The notes beneath the pieces are model-generated. The model saw only the letters and a program-made list of their open reading frames with translations, did no database searches and was not told the origin of the DNA. Positions 3,755 to 63,291 of a stretch of 64,000 nucleotides of DNA are shown piece by piece. The stretch lies in contig JBPBPU010000005.1 in NCBI GenBank assembly GCA_050954465.1, positions 11,910-75,909 on the forward strand, written 5' to 3'. Each line of letters opens with the position of its first letter. Position 1 is the first letter of the stretch. The DNA is from Janthinobacterium lividum. GTDB taxonomy: Bacteria; Bacteroidota; Bacteroidia; Cytophagales; Hymenobacteraceae. The position numbers and the translations under genes are program-made.

Positions 3755-3786
3755 CCTACTTAGAACTTACGCATCCACTTCGTCAA

Positions 3787-3950
3787 CGTAGCCGCGAAGC
3801 GGCGGCATGTTGGTAGACACGAAGTAGTTAGGTAGTTTTCAGAGCTGCGAAGCTGCGGCACGTTTATTTCAACGATAAGTGCCGCAGCTCCGCAGCTCTA
3901 GGCTAGTCATCAAGCAGTTGCTACCAACATACCGCCGCTTTGCGGCTACG
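3787..3950. repeat. nested palindromic REP-like element (GTAGCCGCG head)
   Basis: Outer 30-bp arms 3787-3816 and 3921-3950 have 2 mismatches. Inner 21-bp arms 3841-3861 and 3879-3899 have 1 mismatch. The element generates the spurious upstream part of track ORF 3879-5591. Confidence 0.85.
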
Positions 3951-4046
3951 CTGACGAGCCGCTTGCGTAAGTCCTACTACTATGAGCTTTTTGCCTCCGG
4001 TATGCCGCCAAGCGCTGTAGAGGCGCGGCTTCGTAGTATTGCGGCT

Positions 4047-11151: not shown

Positions 11152-11244
11152 GTAGAACGGAGTGGTACTCCGTTTGTCGTTGGCTTCGCCGTCCTTCGGT
11201 TGAACGACTTGTTCTGGCGGGAACGGAGTACCACTCCGTTCTAC
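11152..11244. repeat. palindromic REP-like element (GTAGAACGG head)
   Basis: Perfect 23-bp arms at 11152-11174 and 11222-11244. Each arm is itself a 7-bp-stem hairpin (AACGGAG..CTCCGTT). The spacer carries the shared core GGCTTCGCCGTCCTTCGGTTGAACGA. Confidence 0.85.
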
Positions 11245-11285: not shown

Positions 11286-12986
11286 ATGAAAAAGATACTG
11301 CTGCTCGCTCTGCTGGCCCTGCCCGCCGCCGCCCAGAAGCGCGGCCCGGCCCTGGAGCGGCCCAAGCTGGTGGTGGGCATTATCGTAGACCAGATGCGCT
11401 ACGACTACCTCTACCGCTACTGGGACAAGTTTGGCAGTGGCGGCTTCCGGCGGCTGCTAGGCGAGGGCTTTAGCTACGAGAGTTGCCACTATAACTACGT
11501 GCCTACCTACACCGGGCCGGGCCACACCAGCGTGTACACCGGCACCACGCCCGCCAACCACGGCATTGTGGGCAACAACTGGTACGAGCGCGAAACCGGC
11601 CGCACCACCTACGTAACCGACGACAAAACCGTGCAGGCCGTGGGCGGCTCCACCGCGGCCGGCCAGATGTCGCCGCGCCACAACCTGGCCACCACCATCA
11701 CCGACGAGCTGCGGCTGGCCACCAATTTCCAAAGCAAAGTCATCGGCCTGAGCATGAAAGACCGGGGCAGCATCCTGCCGGCCGGGCACGCCGCCAGCGC
11801 CGCTTACTGGTACGACGGCACCAACGGGGCCTTCATTACCAGCACGTTTTATATGCCGGCCCTGCCCGAGTGGGTAAACAGGTTCAACGCCGCCGGCCAC
11901 GCCGCGCAGTACCTAAGCCAGCCTTGGAACCCGCTGCTGCCCCTGGCCGACTACACCGAAAGCACCCCCGACGACGTGCCTTGGGAGGCGGCCTACCAGG
12001 GCGAAGACCGGCCCGTGTTTCCCCATGACCTGCCCCGGCTGAGTGCCAAGGCGCCCGCCGCCGTGCAGGCCACCAAAGAGGCATCGGGCGAAAAGCCCTC
12101 CGGTGCCCCTACCCGCAACCTCGACCTCATCCGCTCCACGCCCTTCGGCAACTCGCTCACCGCCGACTTCGCCATCGAAGCCCTGCACGCCGAGCAAATG
12201 GGCCAGCGCGGGCAAACCGATTTTCTGGCCGTCAGCTTCAGCAGCACCGATTATGTGGGCCACCAGTTCGGCACCAATGCCGTCGAAACCGAGGACACGT
12301 ACCTGCGCCTCGACCGCGACCTGTCCCGCCTGCTTGAGGCGCTGGATAAGCAGGTGGGCAAAGGCCAGGCACTGGTATTCCTCACCGCCGACCACGCCGC
12401 CGACCAGGCCGCCGGCTTCCTCGAAGCCCACCGCCTGCCGGGCGGCGGCCTGGGCACCGCCCCCCTGCGCGACACCGTGCAGCGTGCCCTCACCCGCCGC
12501 CACGGCGAAGGCAAGTGGATTGCCGACTTCGAAAACCAGCAGGTGTACCTCAACCGCGCCCTCATCACCCAGAAAAAGCTGGAGCTGGCCACCGTGCAAA
12601 ACGAAGTGGCCGAGCTGCTGCGCCAGCAGCCGCACATTGCCCAGGCCATTTCGGCCACCGACTTGCAGCGCAACGCTTGGCCGGTGGGCTTGAGCATGTA
12701 CCAGGCCAACGGCTTCTATGCACCGCGCTCGGGCGATGTCCTGTTTGTGATGTCGCCGGGCTGGCTCGAAGCCTACAGCTACCCCATCGTGAAGGGCACT
12801 ACTCATGGTGCTTCGTGGGCCTACGACACCCATGTGCCGCTGCTGTTCTGGGGCTGGCACGTGCGCCACGGCGAAAGCAGCACCGAAGTCAAAATCGTGG
12901 ACATTGCCCCCACCGTGGCCCGCTACCTGCACATTCAGGAGCCCAGCGGCTGCACGGGAGTGCCGCTTACGGAGGTGATGAAGTAG
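11286..12986 (+). CDS. pafA: PafA-type alkaline phosphatase / nucleotide pyrophosphatase-phosphodiesterase family
   Basis: Signal peptide MKKILLLALLALPAAAQ. The N-terminal block KLVVGIIVDQMRYDYLYRYWDKF...YVPTYTGPGHTSVYTGTTPANHGIVGNNWY is typical of Bacteroidota PafA-like enzymes. Also seen: ...SSTDYVGHQFG...TADHA. The stop TAG lies inside the GTAG head of the next repeat. Confidence 0.8.
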   Translation: MKKILLLALLALPAAAQKRGPALERPKLVVGIIVDQMRYDYLYRYWDKFGSGGFRRLLGEGFSYESCHYNYVPTYTGPGHTSVYTGTTPANHGIVGNNWYERETGRTTYVTDDKTVQAVGGSTAAGQMSPRHNLATTITDELRLATNFQSKVIGLSMKDRGSILPAGHAASAAYWYDGTNGAFITSTFYMPALPEWVNRFNAAGHAAQYLSQPWNPLLPLADYTESTPDDVPWEAAYQGEDRPVFPHDLPRLSAKAPAAVQATKEASGEKPSGAPTRNLDLIRSTPFGNSLTADFAIEALHAEQMGQRGQTDFLAVSFSSTDYVGHQFGTNAVETEDTYLRLDRDLSRLLEALDKQVGKGQALVFLTADHAADQAAGFLEAHRLPGGGLGTAPLRDTVQRALTRRHGEGKWIADFENQQVYLNRALITQKKLELATVQNEVAELLRQQPHIAQAISATDLQRNAWPVGLSMYQANGFYAPRSGDVLFVMSPGWLEAYSYPIVKGTTHGASWAYDTHVPLLFWGWHVRHGESSTEVKIVDIAPTVARYLHIQEPSGCTGVPLTEVMK

Positions 12987-13067
12987 CGCGATTTCTGTAA
13001 ATCGCGTCGCCGCGCCGTTAAAATGAGTCGAACGGCGCGGGGACGCAATTTACAGAAATCGCGCTAC
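12983..13067. repeat. palindromic REP-like element (GTAGCGCGA head)
   Basis: 37-bp arms at 12983-13019 and 13031-13067 with 2 mismatches. The first four bases GTAG contain the pafA-like stop codon. Confidence 0.85.
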
Positions 13068-18308: not shown

Positions 18309-18468
18309 CGACACCTCACCTCCTAGCCCCCAGAGTCGCTACGTTCTAGTGCTGTCGCCCTTCGCGACACCTCACCTCCTAGCCCCCTCTCCGAAGAGAG
18401 GGGAGGAATCATCTTTCCAATGCAGGTTTCTAGGGCAAAACTAGAGCTAGTTCCCCTCTCCACGGGAG
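18309..18468. repeat. cluster of short repeats of the CCCCTCTCC...GGAGAGGGG family
   Basis: The 22-bp direct repeat CGACACCTCACCTCCTAGCCCC occurs at 18309-18330 and 18365-18386. An 8-bp-stem hairpin spans 18384-18403. CTAGTTCCCCTCTCCACGGGAG at 18447-18468 recurs at 57095-57118 and, inverted, at about 56829-56856. Confidence 0.7.
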
Positions 18469-24530: not shown

Positions 24531-24532
24531 GT

Positions 24533-24622
24533 AGCAATGAGCAATTAGTAATGAACAAGGAGCAATGTCGTTCTTGTCTTTGAACGACATTGCTCCTTGT
24601 TCATTACTAATTGCTCATTGCT
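24533..24622. repeat. AT-richer palindromic element between convergent genes (GTAGCAATG head at 24531)
   Basis: Perfect 40-bp arms at 24533-24572 and 24583-24622 with a 10-nt loop. It abuts the sdaAA stop and overlaps the stop of the minus-strand gene by 1 nt. Confidence 0.9.
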
Positions 24623-25683
24623 CATTGCCCCACCACCACCGGCGTCATCAGCAGCTTGCTCAGGAATTCCAGGGCCGGGGCGTAGCGGCGGCGGCGCTCC
24701 CGGTAGTGCTGCCAGGCGGCTTCCTCATCGGGGCGCAGGGGCAGGCTGGTAGCGCTCAGGTGCTGCCAGCACTCGGCAAAGCGCTGGCGGTCGGGGTGGG
24801 CGGCATCCTGCTCCTCGGGGGTGCGTAGCTCAGTAGGCTCGGTTTCGGACGTATGGTCGAAGAAGCGGTGCACGCGGTTCAGGGCCAGGCAGCCAGCGGT
24901 AAAGGTTATCTCTACCTGGCGCGAGCGGGGCACGTCGAGGGCCGAGAAGAGCAGGTTGGCCGTGTCGAGGATGAGGCCGGCAGCCGTCACCCAGGAGCGC
25001 CCGCCCTGGGGCGAGCGGAAAAACGCCAGCACCGGCAGCGAGGTGTGGCTTTCGTCGATTTCTACCAGCCACTGCTCCCAGGTTAGCCACTGCGCGTCGT
25101 CGTTCTCAAAGTCGCCATCGTGCCCCAGCCACAGCAGCAGCCCACTGGCCGAGGCCGGCACCCCGGCCCGCAGCTCTAGTTGCGCCACCACTACTTCGCG
25201 CCGCGAAAACGCCTGGTAAATGGTGGGCAAATAGGAGATGAGCAACGTAAGCAGCAGCAGCCCCAGCGTAGCTTCTGAGTAGCTGAAGATGCTGGGCACC
25301 AGCCCCCTGGGCGGGGTAGTGCCCAGTGTGAGCAGGGCGCTGCCACTCAACTCGTAGCATTTGGTGAAGTTGCCCACATCCAGCGCCCAGTAAATAGCGG
25401 TGTAGCCGGCTCCTACCAGCGCCAGCCAGCCGATGGGTAAAGCCACCAGCCCCACCGGTGCATAATGCGAGAGAATACGGTCGCGCCGGGCATAGTTGTT
25501 GGCCCGCCGCGCTGCAAAGTCGAACAGCGCCCGAATGCCCCCAAACACGAACGCATTAAGCCGCACCGACTCACTGCGCGGCAGTACAAACGAGCGAATA
25601 GCGGCCGACACAGTCGTGATAACCAGCCAGCCCCCGGCCAGCCCCACCAGCAGGCGCACCCCCATTTCTACTGTAGTCGACAT
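24622..25683 (-). CDS. integral membrane protein, possibly ion-channel-like
   Basis: The N-terminal half has about 4-5 helices and a pore-loop-like LLTLGTTPP segment. The C-terminal ~170 aa look soluble. The channel assignment is weak inference. Confidence 0.55.
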   Translation of the reverse strand: MSTTVEMGVRLLVGLAGGWLVITTVSAAIRSFVLPRSESVRLNAFVFGGIRALFDFAARRANNYARRDRILSHYAPVGLVALPIGWLALVGAGYTAIYWALDVGNFTKCYELSGSALLTLGTTPPRGLVPSIFSYSEATLGLLLLTLLISYLPTIYQAFSRREVVVAQLELRAGVPASASGLLLWLGHDGDFENDDAQWLTWEQWLVEIDESHTSLPVLAFFRSPQGGRSWVTAAGLILDTANLLFSALDVPRSRQVEITFTAGCLALNRVHRFFDHTSETEPTELRTPEEQDAAHPDRQRFAECWQHLSATSLPLRPDEEAAWQHYRERRRRYAPALEFLSKLLMTPVVVGQ

Positions 25684-37256: not shown

Positions 37257-37361
37257 GTAGAGACGCATCTTTGCGTCTTGTCGTTAGCTTCGCTGACCTC
37301 CGGTTGAACGAGGCTACTGGCGCGTTTCAAACAACGCCGAGACGCAAAGATGCGTCTCTAC
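37257..37361. repeat. palindromic REP-like element (GTAGAGACG head), copy 1
   Basis: Perfect 22-bp arms at 37257-37278 and 37340-37361. Each arm is a hairpin (AGACGCA..TGCGTCT). The 61-nt spacer carries TTAGCTTCGCTGACCTCCGGTTG. Confidence 0.9.
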
Positions 37362-39051: not shown

Positions 39052-39155
39052 ATAGAGACGCATCTTTGCGTCTCGTCGTTAGCTTCGCTGACCTTCGGTT
39101 GTTTGAAACACGCCAGTAGTCTCTTCAACGACGAGACGCAAAGATGCGTCTCTAC
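39052..39155. repeat. palindromic REP-like element (GTAGAGACG family), copy 2
   Basis: 29-bp arms at 39052-39080 and 39127-39155 with 1 mismatch, at the first base (ATAG vs GTAG). The spacer shares the core with copy 1, but its central ~25 nt are in inverted orientation. Confidence 0.9.
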
Positions 39156-43623: not shown

Positions 43624-43629
43624 TACGGG

Positions 43630-43770
43630 TCGCCCTCCGGGGCTCACCCCACCCCCCGGCCCCCTCCCCTTCGGGAGAGGGGGAGCCACGGCGGCGCAGT
43701 TATGAAGTCGTCAGGCTCCCCCTCTCCCGAAGGGGAGGGGGCCGGGGGGTGGGGTGAGCGCGGAGGGCGA
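43630..43770. repeat. GC-rich palindromic element (CCCCTCCCC...GGGGAGGGG family) between the MFP and RND genes
   Basis: About 57-bp arms at 43630-43687 and 43714-43770, near-perfect (one indel and one mismatch). Each arm has its own sub-hairpin. The element accounts for the spurious first 34 codons of track ORF 43702. Confidence 0.85.
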
Positions 43771-43803
43771 TTTGCCATACTCCCGCAATTAAAGAATATC
43801 ATT

Positions 43804-52424: not shown

Positions 52425-52540
52425 ATAGCGTGGGCTTTAGCTACGCTGACCTTCGGTTGTAGTCCGCGTTTGCGCTGTTTGCCCTAACGGTGCGAACGCG
52501 GACTACAACCGAAGGTCAGCGTAGCTAAAGCCCACGCTAC
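52425..52540. repeat. palindromic REP-like element (ATAGCGTGGGC...GCCCACGCTAC)
   Basis: 46-bp arms at 52425-52470 and 52495-52540, with 45 perfect pairs and a first-base mismatch. The arms contain the core TTAGCTACGCTGACCTTCGGTTG shared with other families. Confidence 0.9.
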
Positions 52541-53539: not shown

Positions 53540-54892
53540 ATGCTCTTTTACACCGTGATGAAGCCGCTAGTGCGCCTGGGGCTGCGCGTGTTTTTCCGGC
53601 GCCTCGAAGTGCGCCACCCCGAGCGCCTGCGCCTGCCCGGCCCCCTGCTGCTGTGCGGCAACCACCCCAATACCCTCATGGACCCGCTCGTGACGGCCGT
53701 GCAGCGCCGCCAGCCCATTGCCTTTCTGGCCAAGAGCACCTTCTTCAAAAACCCGGTACTAGGGGCCATCATGCGTTCCGGCAACTGCATTCCCATCTAC
53801 CGGCGGCAGGATGCCGAGGGCGGCACCGAGCGCCTGACCCCAGCCCAGCTGGCCGCCAGCAACGAAGCCAGCTTCGGGCGCTGCTACGACTACCTGGAGC
53901 ACGGCGGCACGGTGATGATATTTCCCGAGGGCACCAGCGTGAGCGAGCGCCGCCTGCGCCCGCTCAAAACCGGGGCCGCCCGCATTGCGCTGGGCACCGA
54001 GGCCCGGCACGATTTCAAGCTGGGCCTGCAACTAGTGTGCGTGGGCACCAACTACTTCGACCCCAGCAAATTTCGCTCCGACGTGCTGCTCAACGTGGCC
54101 CCGCCTATCCGGGTAGCCGACTACGCCGAGCGCTACCACCACGACCCCGACGCCGCCGCCGACGAGTTGACCGACGAAATAGCGCGCCGCCTGAGTCGCC
54201 GCCTCGTCATCAGCCACGCCGCCGAGTACGACGAGCTGGCCCAGCAGATTGAGCGCACCTTCGGCGACCACCTCAACCCCGACGACGACCCCACCACGCT
54301 CTACGACAACTTCACGCTCAGCCGTACCGTGCTCGATGCCGTGGCCTGGTTTGAGCAGCACGCTCCCGCCCAGGTAAACGCCCTGCGCACGGCCCTCAGC
54401 GGCTACCTCACCAACCTGCAACAACAGCGCCTCGACGACGAAGCTTTGAGCCAGAGTTTTCACTCGCGCCTGCTCGACTACCTCAACCTCGTGCTGGGCC
54501 TGCCCGTGTGGCTCTACGGCGTGCTCACCAACTACATTCCCTACATCCTGCCCTCCGAAGTAGCCCGCCGCGCCACCCGCGAAACCGAGTTTATTGCGGC
54601 TATTCTGCTCGGGGTGGGCATGGTTACGTTTCCGCTGGCCTACGCCCTGGAGGCCGCCGCCGTGCAGCACTGGCTCACCCACGACTGGCGCCTCACGGCC
54701 CTGTTCGTGCTCAGCCTGCCGCTTACCGGTTTCTATGCCCTCGGCTACTGGCAGAGCCTGAGTGCCCGCCTGCGCCGCCTGCGCGCCCGCTGGCTGGCCC
54801 CGGCCGTTGCCACCGGGTTGCGCGAGCAGCGCGCCACCGTGCTGCGCCTGCTAGATGAGGCACGGGCCGCGTATGCGGGAAGGGGAGTGTAG
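53540..54892 (+). CDS. PlsC-type lysophospholipid/glycerol-3-phosphate acyltransferase with C-terminal membrane domain
   Basis: The HX4D block is CGNHPNTLMDP. Also seen: FAKSTFF, IFPEGTS, LKTGAARIAL. There are C-terminal TM helices. The start is at ATG 53540. The stop TAG lies inside the next repeat. Confidence 0.8.
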   Translation: MLFYTVMKPLVRLGLRVFFRRLEVRHPERLRLPGPLLLCGNHPNTLMDPLVTAVQRRQPIAFLAKSTFFKNPVLGAIMRSGNCIPIYRRQDAEGGTERLTPAQLAASNEASFGRCYDYLEHGGTVMIFPEGTSVSERRLRPLKTGAARIALGTEARHDFKLGLQLVCVGTNYFDPSKFRSDVLLNVAPPIRVADYAERYHHDPDAAADELTDEIARRLSRRLVISHAAEYDELAQQIERTFGDHLNPDDDPTTLYDNFTLSRTVLDAVAWFEQHAPAQVNALRTALSGYLTNLQQQRLDDEALSQSFHSRLLDYLNLVLGLPVWLYGVLTNYIPYILPSEVARRATRETEFIAAILLGVGMVTFPLAYALEAAAVQHWLTHDWRLTALFVLSLPLTGFYALGYWQSLSARLRRLRARWLAPAVATGLREQRATVLRLLDEARAAYAGRGV

Positions 54893-54946
54893 GGTAAGCT
54901 TTAGCTTGTCGGCCACCCGAGCGGCGAGCTAAAGCTTACCCTACAC
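54887..54946. repeat. palindromic REP-like element (GTAGGGTAAGCT head), copy 1
   Basis: Perfect 20-bp arms at 54887-54906 and 54927-54946. It fills the whole gap between the two convergent stop codons. Confidence 0.9.
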
Positions 54947-54947
54947 C

Positions 54948-56603
54948 CTACTCATCCAGATACTGGTGCACGAATTTGATGGCCATGCTGCCCTCACCTA
55001 CGGCGGAGGCTACGCGGGCCATGGCCCCGGAGCGGCCGTCGCCGGCAGCGAAAAGGCCGGGTACGCAAGTCTCTAGCAGATAAGGCTCCCGGTCTTTTTT
55101 CCAGGCGGTGGGGTAGCGCGGGTCGGCCACTAGGTCGCGGCCGGTGAGCAGGTAGCCTTTGGCATCGCAGAGGGCCAGGTGGCAGACCCACTCGGTGCTG
55201 GGCTTGGCTCCGATGAAGATGAACAGCGCCCGCGCCGGGTGCATTGTAGGCTCGCGCCCATCTTGCTGAATAACTACCGCTTCGAGCGAATTCTCGCCGC
55301 AGGCTTCGCGCACCTGGGTGTGGGGTAGGATGGTGATGTTGGGCGTGTTGGCGATTTGCTCAATCAGGTAGGCCGACATGCTGGCGGCCAGGTTTTCGCC
55401 TCGAATGATGATGAATACCTGCGAGGCGTAGGTAGAGAGGTACATAGCAGCCTGCCCGGCCGAGTTGCCGCCGCCCACAACGTACACCGGCTGCTGGCTG
55501 CAGCTGCGGGCCTCGGTGCGGGCGGCCCCGTAGTACACGCCCGCCCCGCTGAGGCGGTCCAGCCCCGGCGCATCCAGGGTGCGGTAGCTGACGCCGGTTG
55601 TGAGTACTACGGCCCGCGCTTTCACTTCGGTGTTGTCGCTCAGGGTGAGCACTTTGTAGCCGTCCTGCACGCAGAGGTTTACCACTTCCTGCGGGGCCAG
55701 AAACTCGGCCCCCAGGCGGGTGGCCTGCGCCCAGGCACGGTGCGCCAGCTCGGCCCCGCTCAGGCCCGTGGGGAAGCCCAGGTAGTTCTCGATGCGCGAC
55801 GACGAGCCGGCTTGCCCACCGGGCGTTTGGCGCTCGATAATCAGGGTTTTGAGCCCCTCCGAAGCGCCGTACACGGCGGCGGCCAGCCCGGCTGGCCCCG
55901 CCCCGATAACTACCACGTCGTACAGCTCCTGCTTGGCGGCCACGCTCAGGCCCAGGTGCTGGGCCAGGGTTTGGCGGTCGGGTTTGGGCAGGGCGTGGCC
56001 GTCGGCACAGATAACCACGGGCAGGTCGGTGGCGGCTAAGTTATTGGCGGCCACCAGGGTGGCAGCCTCGGCATCCTTCTCGTAATCCAGCCACTGGTAG
56101 CCTACCATGTAGCCACTCAGAAAGTCCTTTAGCTCGTGCGAGAGCGGCGACCACTGAAAGCCGATAAGCCGCAGGCCGTCGAACTTCGGCCGGTACACCT
56201 GCTGCCACTGTTGCAGCAAGTCGTGCAGCGTGGGGTAGAGCAACTGCTCGGGCGGGTCCCAAGGCTTGAGCAGATAATAGTCGAGCTGCGCCGAATTAAT
56301 AGCCTTGATGGCAGCTTCAGTGTCGGCGTAGGCGGTGAGTAACACGCGCTTAGCTTCGGGAAATAACGCCCGAGCCCGGGTCAGCACCTCAATGCCTTCG
56401 ACTTCGGGCATGCGCTGGTCGGCCAGCACCAGGGCCAGCGGCTCAGAGCGGGCTTGCAGTTCGGTGAGGGTGGCCAGGGCCTCGGGGCCGGAGCCGACGC
56501 GCAGAATCCGGTAGTCCTTTTGGAACTCGTGGCGCAGGTCGCGGCTGATGGCGGCCAGCACCTGCGGGTCGTCATCGACGGTGAGAATGACGGGTTTTTT
56601 CAT
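54948..56603 (-). CDS. fused response-regulator receiver / thioredoxin-reductase-like flavoprotein (no CxxC)
   Basis: Receiver features: VDDDP, LADQRMPEVEG (Asp62), LLKPW. FAD/NAD(P) Rossmann motifs: VVVIGAGPAGLAAAVY and VYVVGGGNSAGQAA. C-terminal motif GLFAAGD. The position of the TrxB CATC reads GAAR (55518-55529). Confidence 0.85.
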   Translation of the reverse strand: MKKPVILTVDDDPQVLAAISRDLRHEFQKDYRILRVGSGPEALATLTELQARSEPLALVLADQRMPEVEGIEVLTRARALFPEAKRVLLTAYADTEAAIKAINSAQLDYYLLKPWDPPEQLLYPTLHDLLQQWQQVYRPKFDGLRLIGFQWSPLSHELKDFLSGYMVGYQWLDYEKDAEAATLVAANNLAATDLPVVICADGHALPKPDRQTLAQHLGLSVAAKQELYDVVVIGAGPAGLAAAVYGASEGLKTLIIERQTPGGQAGSSSRIENYLGFPTGLSGAELAHRAWAQATRLGAEFLAPQEVVNLCVQDGYKVLTLSDNTEVKARAVVLTTGVSYRTLDAPGLDRLSGAGVYYGAARTEARSCSQQPVYVVGGGNSAGQAAMYLSTYASQVFIIIRGENLAASMSAYLIEQIANTPNITILPHTQVREACGENSLEAVVIQQDGREPTMHPARALFIFIGAKPSTEWVCHLALCDAKGYLLTGRDLVADPRYPTAWKKDREPYLLETCVPGLFAAGDGRSGAMARVASAVGEGSMAIKFVHQYLDE

Positions 56604-56768
56604 GGTGAGTAGAAACTGAAATCAACAAAAGCTAGTGGCCAAACAACTGGTAAGCCATAAAGGCCCAGCTACCATCGCCGCACACTTGGCTTGGCCGGTA
56701 GCATTACCGCTTCCCAACCGCAGGATTTTTAAAGTCAGGGGAAAATCCAGCACCAACCGGCTGAGTAA

Positions 56769-57183
56769 CTGCTGTTATGCAGCCGTCTCGCCCTCCGCAT
56801 TTACCTCACGAGACCCCTATGGAGCATAGCCCTCTCCTGTGGAGAGGGGCAACTAGCCTCTAGTTTTATTTTTTAGCTCTAATCCAGCCTTGTAAGTTAA
56901 ATACTAGGGCTAAAAATTACTCTACTATTTTTTTGCCGCCGTTTTCAAGCTGTTTCGGGCGGGTGTTGTAGGGTGCGGGGCTTGCCCCCGCCCGTCGTTG
57001 AACGACTGTTCAATGTTCGTTCAACGACGGGCGGGGGCAAGCCCCGCACCCTACAAACCTCGGAAAATTTTTAGTAGGGTAGAGTAGCTAAAAACTAGTT
57101 CCCCTCCCCATAGGAGAGCAGGCTACACCCCATAGGGGTCTCGTGAGGTAAATGCGGAGGGCGAGACGGCTGCATAACAGCAG
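56769..57183. repeat. 415-bp triple-nested composite palindrome
   Basis: The outer 54-bp arms, 56769-56822 and 57130-57183, are perfect. The middle layers are diverged (CCCTCTCC..GGAGAGGGGCAACTAG at about 56829-56856 vs 57095-57118, and AT-rich GCTAAAAATTACTCTAC vs GTAGAGTAGCTAAAAAC). The innermost 40-bp arms, 56966-57005 and 57017-57056 (GTAGGGTGCGGGG head), are perfect. Confidence 0.9.
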
Positions 57184-57697
57184 CGAGTAATGGATTTTGC
57201 TTGGTGGCGTGCGCAGCTTGGGCAGCCAGCCCGATTCTACCCTTACAAACCAAGTACAATCTAGAGGCACCGTTTCTAGGACTTATTATCTTTGTTTTAT
57301 TAAGTTTTTGTAAACTGATTTCTGAAAAGGAAATAAGCCAACCCACTCGGAGTTGAGACACACCAACGCTATATCCTGGCACCAAATGTTTAGTAGAATA
57401 CTCAACAAACTGGGGCTTATTCACTTGGCTTGTGCGGGTATCGATAGCGTGGTGACATGTTGGTAGTTACAAAATAATCAGGCAATTTCCAGAACGGCAA
57501 GGCGTCGATACTTTCACTTCTACAACAGGGCTCTAATTTTTGTGTATTTATTGTGCTTTACAAACAGTTACTACCAACGCATCACGGCTTTTCGGCTAGC
57601 TTCTTAATCCAAGTGCATAAGTCCTACAAACCAAAGAAACACCGTTTAGATGAACGAGAAATAGGCGAGCACTTTTAAATAGAAAAGTTTTGAAATT

Positions 57698-58459
57698 TTG
57701 CACCATACTTTTGTCTTATCCCCTCCCACCCTTGTTAAAATTACATTCTTTGTGCCAGATGCTTTACCCTTGCCAACTGCCCAACTAGCCTTGGTGGCTG
57801 CTACTATCGAACCAACCGGTTCGCCTTCTCTGCCTGGCTCTCCCTACGCTGCTGCGCCAACTTCCCGGCTACTGCCACAACGGAGGGCCGCGTTGCGCGC
57901 TATTCCCCAAACCAGTATTCTGTGGGAGCAGCTGGCTATTCAGCGGCGGGAAATGCAGGCCGCCGAAGCCGCCCTGAGTGAGCTACTAGCGCGTTCAGCC
58001 AAGCCTCGGGTTTCGCGGCTGCGCGAGTGGCTGGGCCGCTACGGGCCAGCGCAACTGCTATCGGTGCTGGCCACGCTGGGTGCAGCCCAGGCAGCTACCC
58101 ACGCCGGAGCCAATGGCGTAGCAGTAGCCCTTGCTGCCACTTGGACTGGCAATCTGGCTTATTTCGGCCTTATTCTGGGGCAGGATGTGAGGCGCACTCG
58201 CTACCAGCTGCACACCCAGGGCCGAGCCTACACCTGGCGCACCCTTGCCCGCAATGGGCGGGCGCTAGTGGTAGAGTTTGGCACAGCCGAAGCCCTGGAC
58301 AGCCTACTTATTCGCCCGGCGCTCCTGTACTGGCTGCCGCGCTGGCTGCACCATATGCCACTAGGCGTGATGGTAGGGCAGCTAGCTGCTGATGTTACGT
58401 TCTATATTCCAGCCATTATCAGCTACGAGCTAAGCAAAGAGCGGCTGCGAAGGTTTTGA
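57698..58459 (+). CDS. hypothetical membrane protein (start uncertain)
   Basis: 253-aa ORF with a TTG start in the track. The C-terminal ~150 aa have about 4 hydrophobic helices. No recognised family. It lies on the opposite strand between the kinase and regulator genes. Confidence 0.4.
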   Translation: MHHTFVLSPPTLVKITFFVPDALPLPTAQLALVAATIEPTGSPSLPGSPYAAAPTSRLLPQRRAALRAIPQTSILWEQLAIQRREMQAAEAALSELLARSAKPRVSRLREWLGRYGPAQLLSVLATLGAAQAATHAGANGVAVALAATWTGNLAYFGLILGQDVRRTRYQLHTQGRAYTWRTLARNGRALVVEFGTAEALDSLLIRPALLYWLPRWLHHMPLGVMVGQLAADVTFYIPAIISYELSKERLRRF

Positions 58460-58525
58460 GGGTTGCTGGTACCTGATGCCTAGACTACTCAATCGGCTGT
58501 CAGCACGACCCTCAAACCAGTAACC

Positions 58526-59943: not shown

Positions 59944-61311
59944 ATGGGGTTAGCAGCGGGGCAGCGCAGGAACCAGCCGACCGCGCAACTGGCGCTAATT
60001 TCCCACAACCTAATTTGCGCCGTGACTGCTGCCCCCTCCCCTTTCCAGCTTACGCGTGAGCATGTGTTGCGGGCCCTGCGCCTAGTGGAGCGCGAGGGCC
60101 GCCGCCTGCCGCCCAGCACGGTGTACGAGCTGCTGTACCGGGGCCGCCGCTACCCGCCCCGCGCCGTGGCCGAGCTGGCCTACCGCCTCGCCCTGGCCGA
60201 CGCGCAAGCCCGCTGGCCCCACCCGGCCGGCCAGCCCACCAATGCCCTGCTCGAAGCCCTCGATTTCACCATTGTGGCCAAGCGCCCCATGCTCACGGCA
60301 GGCCAGCCCCACGACCAGGAGCAGGCCGCCGAACAAGCCGCCGAAAACCTCTACACCGGCTCCCCGCGCCCTGCCGCGCCGGCAGTTTCGGCGGTGGCAG
60401 AAGCGGCGGGCTCCTACGCCAGCCCGGCCCCGGCCTACGCACTGGCCGATGCCCTACGGGAAGTTTTTGTGTCGGAACCCGCCCTGAGTGCGGCCCTGGC
60501 GGGTTTGCGCCGCCGCAAGGCGCTGCTGCTGCAAGGCCCGCCGGGCACGGGCAAAACGTTTCTGGCCCGCCGCCTGGCGTGGCTGCTGCAAGGCAGCCAG
60601 GACGAGCGCCGCACCGAGCTGGTGCAGTTTCATCCCAGCTACGGCTACGAGGACTTTCTGCTCGGCTTCCGCCCCGGCCCCGACGGGCAGTTTCAACTGG
60701 TGCCAGGGGTGCTGCCGCTGCTGTGCCAGCGCGCCGCCCAGGACCCCGACCACCCGTATTTTCTGCTGATTGAGGAGCTGAACCGGGGCAACGTGGCCCG
60801 TATTTTTGGCGAGCTGCTGCTGTTGCTGGAGCCCGATAAGCGCGGCCCTGCCCACGCCATGCGCCTGCCCTACGCGCCGCCCGAGGCCCCGCGCTTCTTC
60901 GTGCCCGCCAACCTCTACGTTATTGGCACCCTCAACCTGGCCGACCGCTCCCTGGCCCCGCTCGACTACGCGCTACGCCGCCGGTTTGCGTTTGTGGGCC
61001 TGGGGCCGCAGTTTGGCGAGCCCTTGCAGCAGCAGCTACGCACAGCGGGTGTGCCCACCCCCCTGCTGGCCGAGCTGGCAAAGCGGATGGTGGCGCTCAA
61101 CCACGTTATTGCCGCTGACCCAGAGCTGGGGCCGGATTTTGAGGTGGGCCACAGCTACTTCTGCGCGCCGCCGCTGGTGCCTACCGAAGCTGGCGAGTGG
61201 CTGCGCCTGATTTTTGAGCAGGAAATCGGCCCGCTGCTCGCCGACTATTGGCGCGAGCAGCCGGAACGGGCCGCCGCACAGCTGCAACGGCTGGTAGCGG
61301 GCGTAGGGTAA
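59944..61311 (+). CDS. mcrB: McrB-family AAA+ GTPase subunit of a type IV restriction system
   Basis: Motifs seen: LLQGPPGTGKTFLARRLA (Walker A), FHPSYGYEDFL, LLIEELNRGNVARIFGELLLLLE, VIGTLNLADRSLAPLDYALRRRFAF. The N-terminal ~100 aa form a separate small domain followed by an Ala/Pro-rich linker. The true start may be GTG 60022. The last codons and the stop lie in the next repeat. Confidence 0.85.
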   Translation: MGLAAGQRRNQPTAQLALISHNLICAVTAAPSPFQLTREHVLRALRLVEREGRRLPPSTVYELLYRGRRYPPRAVAELAYRLALADAQARWPHPAGQPTNALLEALDFTIVAKRPMLTAGQPHDQEQAAEQAAENLYTGSPRPAAPAVSAVAEAAGSYASPAPAYALADALREVFVSEPALSAALAGLRRRKALLLQGPPGTGKTFLARRLAWLLQGSQDERRTELVQFHPSYGYEDFLLGFRPGPDGQFQLVPGVLPLLCQRAAQDPDHPYFLLIEELNRGNVARIFGELLLLLEPDKRGPAHAMRLPYAPPEAPRFFVPANLYVIGTLNLADRSLAPLDYALRRRFAFVGLGPQFGEPLQQQLRTAGVPTPLLAELAKRMVALNHVIAADPELGPDFEVGHSYFCAPPLVPTEAGEWLRLIFEQEIGPLLADYWREQPERAAAQLQRLVAGVG

Positions 61312-61405
61312 GCTGCAGCTTGCCAATTTTAGGCGTTAGGGGTTTAGGCCCGACATTCACCAACAACCTCATTACTTTAAACTGGCAAGCTGAAGCTTAC
61401 CCTAC
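61303..61405. repeat. palindromic REP-like element (GTAGGGTAAGCT head), copy 2
   Basis: 23-bp arms at 61303-61325 and 61383-61405 with 1 mismatch and a 57-nt spacer. The left arm contains the mcrB stop TAA (61309-61311). The right arm ends 5 nt before the next ATG. Confidence 0.9.
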
Positions 61406-63161: not shown

Positions 63162-63291
63162 GTAGCGCGAAGCTTTCGCTTCATGCATCGCCGTAGCGCG
63201 GCGATGCTCGCGGGTGCAGTTATTGACCTAAGCGGCGTGGTGCCAGATTCGCCGTGTTGCGGCGATGCGCGAAGCGAAAGCTTCGCGCTAC
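63162..63291. repeat. palindromic REP-like element (GTAGCGCGAAGC head)
   Basis: 32-bp arms at 63162-63193 and 63260-63291 with 2 mismatches. An extra internal copy of CGGCGATGC (63199-63207) forms a sub-hairpin with the left arm. Confidence 0.85.

Follow-up and report, generated by a model that had tools for sequence, protein, structure and literature searches.

The palindrome of 415 bp at positions 56769 to 57183 of the window, by which we mean the whole analysed stretch of 64,000 nucleotides, is probably a composite of two intergenic repeats, selfish or structural in kind. A pair of GTAG-type REP units, carried in a block of 133 nt, is most plausibly nested in the spacer of a host palindrome.

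The window has a GC content of 63%, and a repeat scan revealed abundant long intergenic hairpins throughout it. The sequences of the flanking proteins place the window within Hymenobacter DNA; among named relatives, Hymenobacter sp. HMF4947 has the best match to the left-hand gene, with 87% identity. The palindrome is located in a non-coding stretch of 1.29 kb, between divergent gene starts, and this stretch is flanked by two genes:

54948-56603, minus strand: response-regulator/FAD-oxidoreductase gene, on one flank of the non-coding stretch
about 57893-58459: small conserved Hymenobacter gene, 188 aa per database call, on the other flank

Two small ORFs overlapping the element, 56635-56829 on the plus strand and 57095-57424 on the minus strand, gave no Pfam match and were treated as spurious. 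The non-coding stretch with the palindrome splits a histidine kinase/response regulator gene pair. In HMF4947, the two genes lie on the same strand, 6 bp apart; in the window they are separated by 1.9 kb, and in locus L007, the closest relative (90% amino-acid identity), by 3 kb of unrelated genes. An orthologous empty site was sought in L007 and in L008 (87% amino-acid identity), and none was found in either. L007 has only two flanking genes in common with the window and carries unrelated DNA where the element sits; in L008, the flanking genes are adjacent, with no gap at the element position. Homologues of the right-hand gene in other species occur in unrelated contexts.

Structurally, the composite consists of a long outer inverted repeat and a shorter inner hairpin, and both a reading of the sequence and an inverted-repeat scan returned the coordinates that the first-pass annotation had given for them. 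The outer inverted repeat comprises 68 nt per arm (56769-56836 and 57116-57183) at 93% complementarity, the outermost 54 nt being perfect in an alignment of arm against arm. A 30-mer of the outer arm matched nothing else in the window and gave 0 matches in 100 shuffles. The inner hairpin (56966-57005 and 57017-57056) has arms of 40 nt that pair at 100% across a loop of 11 nt. The composite further contains the CCCTCTCC...GGAGAGGG units and an AT-rich inverted pair of 12 nt (56867-56878 and 57086-57097). Folded as single-stranded DNA, the region 56760-57192 reaches -174 kcal/mol (z = -28 against shuffles). From left to right, the parts are as follows:

56763-56768, no strand: GAGTAA, left copy of a 6-bp direct repeat and possible target-site duplication (sequence reading)
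56769-56785, plus strand: left outermost module of 17 nt, CTGCTGTTATGCAGCCG, a small CTGC/GCAG hairpin (motif search, local fold)
56786-56856, plus strand: left family arm in its long form, TCTCGCCCTCCGCATTTA + ACCTCACGAGACCCCTATGGAGCATAG + CCCTCTCC-TGT-GGAGAGGG + GCAACTAG (nhmmer E = 3.8e-14, arm alignment)
56857-56934, no strand: left host centre, AT-rich and CTAG-rich, ending in a run of seven T (blocks in common with L010, L006 and L014)
56935-56965, no strand: GC-rich segment of 31 nt, left end of the putative 133-nt block (absent from the centres of relatives)
56966-57056, no strand: inner hairpin, tail-to-tail GTAG-headed REP units (GTAGGGTGCGGGGCTTGCCCCCGCCC) with a GTCGTTGAACGAC-type spacer (repeat scan, fold)
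57057-57067, no strand: ACCTCGGAAAA, right end of the putative 133-nt block (collinearity with L010)
57068-57094, no strand: right AT-rich host centre, starting with a run of five T and ending with AGCTAAAAA (spacer comparison)
57095-57166, minus strand: right family arm, its core more diverged than that of the left arm (nhmmer E = 3.6e-13)
57167-57183, minus strand: inverted copy of the outermost 17-nt module (motif search)
57185-57190, no strand: GAGTAA, right copy of the 6-bp direct repeat (sequence reading)

On its own, each arm, the left one (56786-56856) included, folds locally into a row of small hairpins. At the right host centre, AGCTAAAAA and the CTAGTT of the adjoining arm together make up a family-conserved motif, AGCTAAAAACTAGTT. 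A search of Rfam 15 with the element returned nothing at the gathering score and only sub-threshold matches to microRNA precursors, which we rejected as spurious products of the long hairpin. In the flanks, we also observed an 8-nt inverted pair (AAAATCCA and TGGATTTT), which might represent a fourth layer or might be due to chance (about 1%, a rough estimate).

The layers are not arranged as had been described at first. A symmetric nesting of three different repeat families had been proposed. The axis of the inner hairpin lies at about 57011 and that of the outer arms at about 56976, an offset of 35 nt, so that the outer arm and the inner hairpin are 129 nt apart on the left side but 59 nt apart on the right. 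Aligning one half against the other showed that the interior is not mirrored. Furthermore, other genomes carry the outer arms together with the CCCTCTCC/GGAGAGGGG units and the AT-rich centre, and these parts make up a single recurring family. The inner hairpin is the sole part of the composite that stems from a separate family.

By the sequence of its arms, the outer element belongs to a family of palindromic repeats that is intergenic and specific to Hymenobacter. A degenerate arm pattern was found at five loci in representative genomes, four of them labelled Hymenobacter and one a bin labelled Janthinobacterium, and at eight loci in metagenomes. Both window arms match the family arm profile at E about 1e-13 (nhmmer). 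Among 72,556 plasmids searched by BLAST, the region matched only the H. psoromatis plasmid CP014769, and the consensus element again matched Hymenobacter only. The copy on CP014769, located between atpG and pgm, is a plain palindrome of 190 bp, its arms of 94 nt matching at 87% and separated by a gap of 3 nt; its arm sequence is that of the window copy, and the inner hairpin is lacking. In total, 13 full elements with unrelated flanks were collected, namely the window copy, a window copy at 43.6 kb and 11 copies from fetched loci, and partial or variant copies occur in L009, L011, L012 and L013.

The family arm is 55-75 nt long, and two such arms face each other across an AT-rich, CTAG-rich spacer. 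From the outside to the inside, the arm is composed of an optional TCGCCCTCCGC-n5, ACCTCAC, a variant position, CCCCCTCTCC (with 14 protein letters not shown) and ACTAG. The variant position is occupied either by GAGACCCCTATGGGGCATAG (type A) or by CCCCTAG (type B), and the 12 aligned elements divide into six A/A, five A/B and one B/B. Ten of these 12 have a total length of 143-216 bp and centres of 26-80 nt, the exceptions being the window copy and L015. Typically, a member occupies a short interval separating two co-directional genes, its arm ends lying 4-50 nt from stop or start codons, and the flanking genes vary from locus to locus. No transposase was seen beside any copy of the outer family. 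We found no description of Hymenobacter palindromic repeats in the searchable literature, and the family and its occurrence in Bacteroidota appear to be new. Two further members are situated in the window:

43629-43771, no strand: second family member, B/B, with perfect 46-nt arms and the same TCGCCCTCCG outer extension (pattern scan, arm profile)
18345-18465, no strand: third member, decayed, with a B-type left arm, a CTAG-rich centre and a truncated right arm (E = 6.3e-07)

The inner hairpin can be read as a tail-to-tail pair of GTAG-headed REPs, a family separate from that of the outer element. GTAG followed by GGTGCGGGGCTTGCCCCCGCCC occupies 56968-56993, with the inverse at 57029-57054, so that each unit has the unpaired GTAG tag and the imperfect short palindrome that characterise a REP. 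Read from the sequence, the units form a local stem with bulges; as one long fold, the 40-nt perfect arms reach -59.5 kcal/mol (z = -16.5). At least ten GTAG...CTAC palindromes of several sequence types occur within the 64 kb of the window. In each of these pairs, an arm consists of GTAG and a short GC-rich imperfect hairpin, and many have GTCGTT...GAACGA motifs in the spacer. The particular REP of the inner hairpin occurs once in the window and has no match among the plasmids. A free-standing relative was detected in an intergenic gap (L013:6664-6775, GTAGGAGCGGGGCTCGCCCCCGCCCGTTGTTGAAC...), with 93% identity over 29 nt. The tail-to-tail layout of the window pairs is that of GTAG-tagged REP dimers (PMC3733652). 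In the survey presented there, GTAG repeats are listed from other phyla, and for Bacteroidetes the CGTC type alone is given.

The spacers of the family delimit the point at which the inner hairpin would have entered. Between the window spacer and the other family spacers, we observed collinear short blocks (TTTTAGCTCTAAT, CTAGGGCTAAAAATTA, TATTTTTTT, TTTTTAGNAGGNTAGAG and CTAAAAACTAGTTCCCC). The left host centre has TTTTAGCTCTAAT, CTAGGGCTAAAAATTA, GTAAGTTA and TATTTTTTT in common with L010, L006 and L014. In the right host centre, TTTTTAGTAGGGTAGAG matches TTTTTAGAAGGCTAGAG of L010, and CTAAAAACTAGTTCCCC is identical in L014 and L016. In the uninterrupted L010, TATTTTTTT and TTTTTAGAAGGCTAGAG overlap by five T, whereas the window segments matching them (56926-56934 and 57068-57084) are 133 nt apart. 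Setting this overlap against the boundaries at 56934 and 57068 thus delimits a 133-nt block (56935-57067) within a T-run, a breakpoint defined by alignment with L010. The block is made up of the 31-nt GC-rich piece, the 91-nt REP pair and the 11 nt of ACCTCGGAAAA; for the 42 nt outside the REP pair, no source was identified. The segment 56935-56965 was considered as a hairpin or terminator and rejected, as its fold (z = -0.69) is no better than that of shuffles and it lacks a subsequent T-run. Removal of the block would leave a host of about 282 bp, whose spacer, at about 105 nt, would be somewhat above the usual 26-80 nt but much nearer to that range than the present 238 nt.

Three observations support the proposal that an older palindrome received another one in its loop region: the twelve relatives without the inner hairpin, the free-standing relative in L013 and the collinearity with L010. 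The same proposal had put the insertion exactly at the apex. This detail is not supported, since the insert lies within a T-run of the AT-rich spacer and is displaced from the axis by 35 nt.

Most probably, the 133-nt block with the REP pair entered the T-run of the AT-rich host spacer, by which the spacer grew to 238 nt and a perfect hairpin of 91 nt came to lie at a distance of 35 nt from the host axis. From what is established on REP/RAYT and IS200/IS605 biology, GTAG REPs would travel as single-stranded DNA with the help of Y1 HUH transposases. The REP pair may have been mobilised as single-stranded DNA by a transposase of the RAYT type (Y1 HUH, TnpA_REP), and the unpaired spacer of the extruded host hairpin may have served as the single-stranded target. 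If a host palindrome folded on single-stranded DNA, the AT-rich spacer alone would be unpaired, which would explain why incoming repeats are found in spacers. A six-frame scan for a RAYT-like pair of HUH and Y motifs found none in the window or in the fetched loci; of the TnpA_REP proteins, subclasses 2.4 and 2.6 are known from Bacteroidetes (PMC6006769).

The ends of the composite are not accounted for by nesting of this kind. The two arms show 0 mismatches in the outer 54 nt, compared with five mismatches and three gap positions in the next 37 nt, and at a uniform rate the probability of 0 mismatches in 54 would be about 0.007, in a post hoc calculation. The arm cores of the window copy (ACCTCAC to ACTAG) are 77% identical, below the between-element mean of 84%. 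With a perfect outer 54 nt and arm cores at 77%, simple decay of an old insertion fails as an explanation. The 17-nt module CTGCTGTTATGCAGCCG is present in both arms of the window copy, and no copy was found in the rest of the window or in the 18 loci; being in both arms and in no relative, it cannot have been produced by a single insertion. Free copies of the 54-nt arm and partial nests had been named at the outset as intermediate states to look for. Elements without the inner hairpin were found, and a second copy of the arm was found neither in the window nor in the 18 loci or the plasmids.

Copying from arm to arm, by template switching, by hairpin-templated repair at a stalled fork or by gene conversion, may have built or homogenised the outer layer including the 17-nt module. 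This process would account for the step from 0 mismatches in the outer 54 nt to five and three gap positions further in, and for a module that both arms carry and no relative has. It is further suggested by the arms of L001, each of which is nearest to its own partner, as is one arm per pair in L002 and L015. Another hint comes from the CCCTCTCC hairpin, whose loop is dispensable for local pairing and yet changes together in both arms of an element (TGCG, AAAAAA, CGTG and AAAA). Arms are, however, not generally homogenised, since five of the 12 elements combine different arm types (A + B), and conversion tracts lack direct evidence. The unmirrored interior excludes a single fold-back copy of the whole unit; the idea that a large composite was copied whole by strand-switching is not supported, given the asymmetric interior and the 77% identity of the arm cores. 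Overall, we regard arm-to-arm copying as an unlikely origin of the ends.

The direct repeat GAGTAA raises a different possibility, namely that the whole 416-bp composite is an active miniature inverted-repeat element with the 54-nt ends as its terminal inverted repeats, the interior with the captured REP pair as cargo and GAGTAA as the duplicated target. The left GAGTAA abuts the inverted repeat directly and the right one starts one base (C, 57184) past it, an arrangement with a chance of roughly 3 x 4^-6 per element. Perfect ends with a diverged interior would be expected if the ends alone were constrained or if a master copy had already diverged, and the 1.29-kb non-coding stretch splits a kinase/regulator pair that is adjacent in HMF4947. 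Against this stands the lack of a second 17-nt end module or 54-nt arm in the window, the 18 loci and the plasmids. A peptide search based on all three frames of the arm that read inward, aimed at miscalled ORFs on other copies, gave no matches either. No consistent flanking duplication was found in 11 other family elements, and the same GCTGAGTA lies to the left of the H. psoromatis element, so that GAGTAA may be a part of the element or a preferred site. No transposase with matching ends is known, and the search for an autonomous insertion sequence with the same ends returned only Hymenobacter family copies among the 72,556 plasmids. We consider a mobile composite somewhat unlikely. It would be compatible with a nested origin, but the locus would then be a secondary copy. 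Mobility of the composite and arm-to-arm copying are not mutually exclusive, and both address the perfect ends, the 17-nt module and GAGTAA.

An assembly artefact, either a fold-back chimera or a mis-join of two repeat copies, is highly improbable. The source appears to be a single contig of 81.6 kb that was seen once and thus probably comes from a metagenome assembly, and L005 and L006, both from one MAG, have a common left flank and arm and then diverge, which shows that assemblers can be confused by these repeats. The palindrome, however, is imperfect and asymmetric, with arm cores at 77% identity and unique, different genes on either side. The same architecture is found in the finished plasmid CP014769 and in several independent assemblies, and the window holds other perfect hairpins of similar size.

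The element could also have been kept for a function, as a two-way transcription terminator or insulator or as an RNA stabiliser, and this we consider quite improbable. Toward the inside of each arm, ACTAGTTTTT comes next after the GC-rich CCCTCTCC/GGAGAGGG hairpin, and a consensus scan placed inward-facing sites on both strands (56845-56861 on plus, 57117-57100 on minus), with five sites in the region where 1.6 are expected. Members moreover fill short co-directional gene gaps, as has been described for REPs (PMC3733652). Yet five nucleotides, ACTAG, lie between stem and T-run, and mutations in the local hairpins of L004, L016 and the right window arm are uncompensated. Positions are non-syntenic between species, and the window copy is set between divergent gene starts, where a terminator would have no obvious role. 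Under the preferred reading of a REP pair nested in a host palindrome, the composite would today act as a passive hairpin between genes, perhaps resembling a terminator on either strand.

Nesting recurs in this genome. Three of 11 GTAG pairs lie within larger palindromes, while a flanking exact inverted repeat of at least 12 nt was present at no more than 0.7% of random positions. Besides the composite itself, two such structures are present in the window:

52426-52539, no strand: GTAG REP pair (52459-52506) exactly centred in an outer palindrome with 33-nt arms (inverted-repeat scan)
3761-3976, no strand: three-layer palindrome of outer arms, a GTAG REP pair (3788-3949) and an inner CAGAGCTGCG... 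hairpin

In the outer family, the spacer of L015 holds a different inverted-repeat element with 38-nt arms and CTAG on both sides, about 34 nt off-axis. GTAG and CGTC REP dimers within longer palindromes have been reported from A. variabilis, T. roseum and H. neapolitanus (PMC3733652, section 7).

When compared with known systems, the inner hairpin most resembles the GTAG-tagged REP dimers or REPINs described by Di Nocera et al. (2013, PMC3733652). The likeness comprises the GTAG head, the GC-rich imperfect hairpin, the inverted units, the structured spacer and the extragenic position, as well as many sequence-diverse pairs per genome and the occurrence of dimers inside longer palindromes. It differs in that no RAYT is linked to the inner hairpin. 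Furthermore, the host palindrome is much larger here and recurs independently, whereas in A. variabilis and H. neapolitanus the target palindromes were not encountered on their own (PMC3733652).

The outer family shares several properties with MITE-like repeats such as ERIC, Correia/NEMIS, RUP and Nezha, partly outlined in PMC3733652. Its members are 140-220 bp long, almost fully self-complementary and intergenic, occur at non-syntenic sites in several species of the genus, often beside coding regions, and have larger variants arising from internal insertions. The outer element also possesses terminal inverted repeats (54 nt perfect; 68 nt at 93%). In contrast to MITEs, the outer family shows no consistent target-site duplication across the elements compared and no parent insertion sequence with matching ends among the plasmids, and its arms are built from three or four consecutive small hairpins. 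The free combination of arm types A and B brings it nearer to REP heterodimers than to a MITE.

BIMEs are the bacterial interspersed mosaic elements of E. coli. As in BIMEs, palindromic units whose orientation alternates form mosaics in the structures described here; the units are of more than one type, and the motifs of the linkers are conserved. The present structures differ in having unrelated sequences in another phylum and much longer units, and they are not known to bind IHF, gyrase or Pol I. The REPIN concept itself reportedly goes back to Bertels and Rainey. Tobes and Pareja are said to have reported in 2006 that IS elements target REP hairpins, with IS1397 and ISKpn1 entering the loop of the palindromic unit; such targeting is also mentioned in PMC3733652. 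These would provide a precedent for mobile DNA landing in palindromic repeats; here, however, the incoming DNA would be a non-coding palindrome, and a long AT-rich spacer was hit instead of a loop of 3-5 nt.

REP dimers inside palindromes and mosaic repeat clusters are already known, and the general significance of the finding is modest. It adds GTAG-type REP pairs in a phylum where the 2013 survey gave only the CGTC type (PMC3733652), and it provides a clean case of one palindromic repeat having landed inside another, with an uninterrupted relative for comparison. In practical terms, such repeats interrupt assemblies built from short reads and give rise to small ORFs that are spurious.

For the biology of these genomes, the finding bears on how REP-like elements choose their targets and on the reasons for which long hairpins are tolerated. 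We tentatively propose, as an unlikely extension, a self-nesting system in Hymenobacter, in which the single-stranded spacer or loop of an extruded palindrome would be the preferred landing place for other palindromic repeats, namely REP pairs moved as single-stranded DNA, and arm-to-arm copying would keep the arms alike or extend them outward. If this were true, intergenic palindromes would grow in layers, and the 54-nt ends with their private 17-nt module, the three layered palindromes within 64 kb and the co-varying loops would be the footprints of this growth.

In the window, the histidine kinase and response-regulator/oxidoreductase genes that flank the 415-bp composite are separated by 1.9 kb (56604-58525). 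This gap contains the palindrome, 500 bp of non-coding DNA (37-43% GC) and, on the opposite strand, a small conserved gene. The corresponding genes of Hymenobacter sp. HMF4947 (L008:2094-5156) are 6 bp apart, and those of the closest relative (L007:1-5156) lie 3 kb apart with unrelated genes between them. The kinase/regulator junction looks like an insertion hot spot. To the left of the composite, AAAATCCA (56741-56750) is the reverse complement of TGGATTTT (57191-57198) to its right. Without the element and one copy of the flanking GAGTAA direct repeat, the two would pair to give a stem of 8 bp that surrounds the point of insertion, a complementarity that could be due to chance.

Hymenobacter-type repeats are also present in contigs labelled 'MAG: Janthinobacterium lividum'. 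This label is carried by the comparison contig L004 (JBPBQJ010000134.1) and by the database proteins P0070, P0082, P0144 and P0145; proteins so labelled share 81-83% identity with the Hymenobacter-like response regulator of the window. The 'Janthinobacterium lividum' MAG bin probably has a wrong label or is contaminated. A Hymenobacter MAG has two contigs (L005:1-225 and L006:7708-7970) with about 115 nt of left flank and arm in common, beyond which spacer, right arm and right flank all differ. They represent strain variants, two copies whose extended left end is common to both, or else a break in the assembly at the repeat.

Within the family, the elements combining an A and a B arm show a consistent orientation towards genes. 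The start-codon-proximal arm is of type B in all five (L003, L005, L010, L014 and L016), where this arm (…GGAGAGGGGGCTAGGGGGTGAGGT) lies 4-50 nt upstream of the start codon and reads toward the gene. A palindrome of the same superfamily in the window lies 5 nt past a stop codon and about 33 nt ahead of a large gene's likely start:

43629-43771, same-superfamily palindrome with perfect 46-nt B-type arms and a GC-rich 26-nt spacer

The window has at least ten additional GTAG...CTAC REP pairs. They fall into several sequence types, and many have the spacer motifs GTCGTT...GAACGA or GCTGACCTTCGGTT in common. A 2013 survey includes no GTAG-type REPs for Bacteroidetes in its listing (PMC3733652).

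GTAG...CTAC REP pairs in the window
3788-3949, REP pair
11152-11244, REP pair
12983-13067, REP pair
24531-24624, REP pair
37257-37361, REP pair
39052-39155, REP pair
52459-52506, REP pair
54889-54944, REP pair
61303-61405, REP pair
63162-63291, REP pair

Two further palindromes of the window are layered:

3761-3976, palindrome of three layers, 216 bp
52426-52539, palindrome with 33-nt arms and a GTAG pair exactly at its centre

Among the comparison loci, the family member at L015 contains a small inverted-repeat element, GTGCTCCGACCGCTTAATTT...AAATTAAGCGGTTGAAGCAC, within its spacer (L015:2739-2854), bordered by CTAG at each side. This CTAG pair is possibly a 4-bp duplication of the kind characteristic of IS5-like elements. 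At L009:4680-4790, L011:6330-6420 and L012:1550-1640 (higher-GC organism), a GAGACCCCTATGGGGCATAG module occupies the loop of a different hairpin, CCTCATCCCC...GGGGGTGAGG; the small GAGACCCCTATGGGGCATAG module may be insertable by itself.
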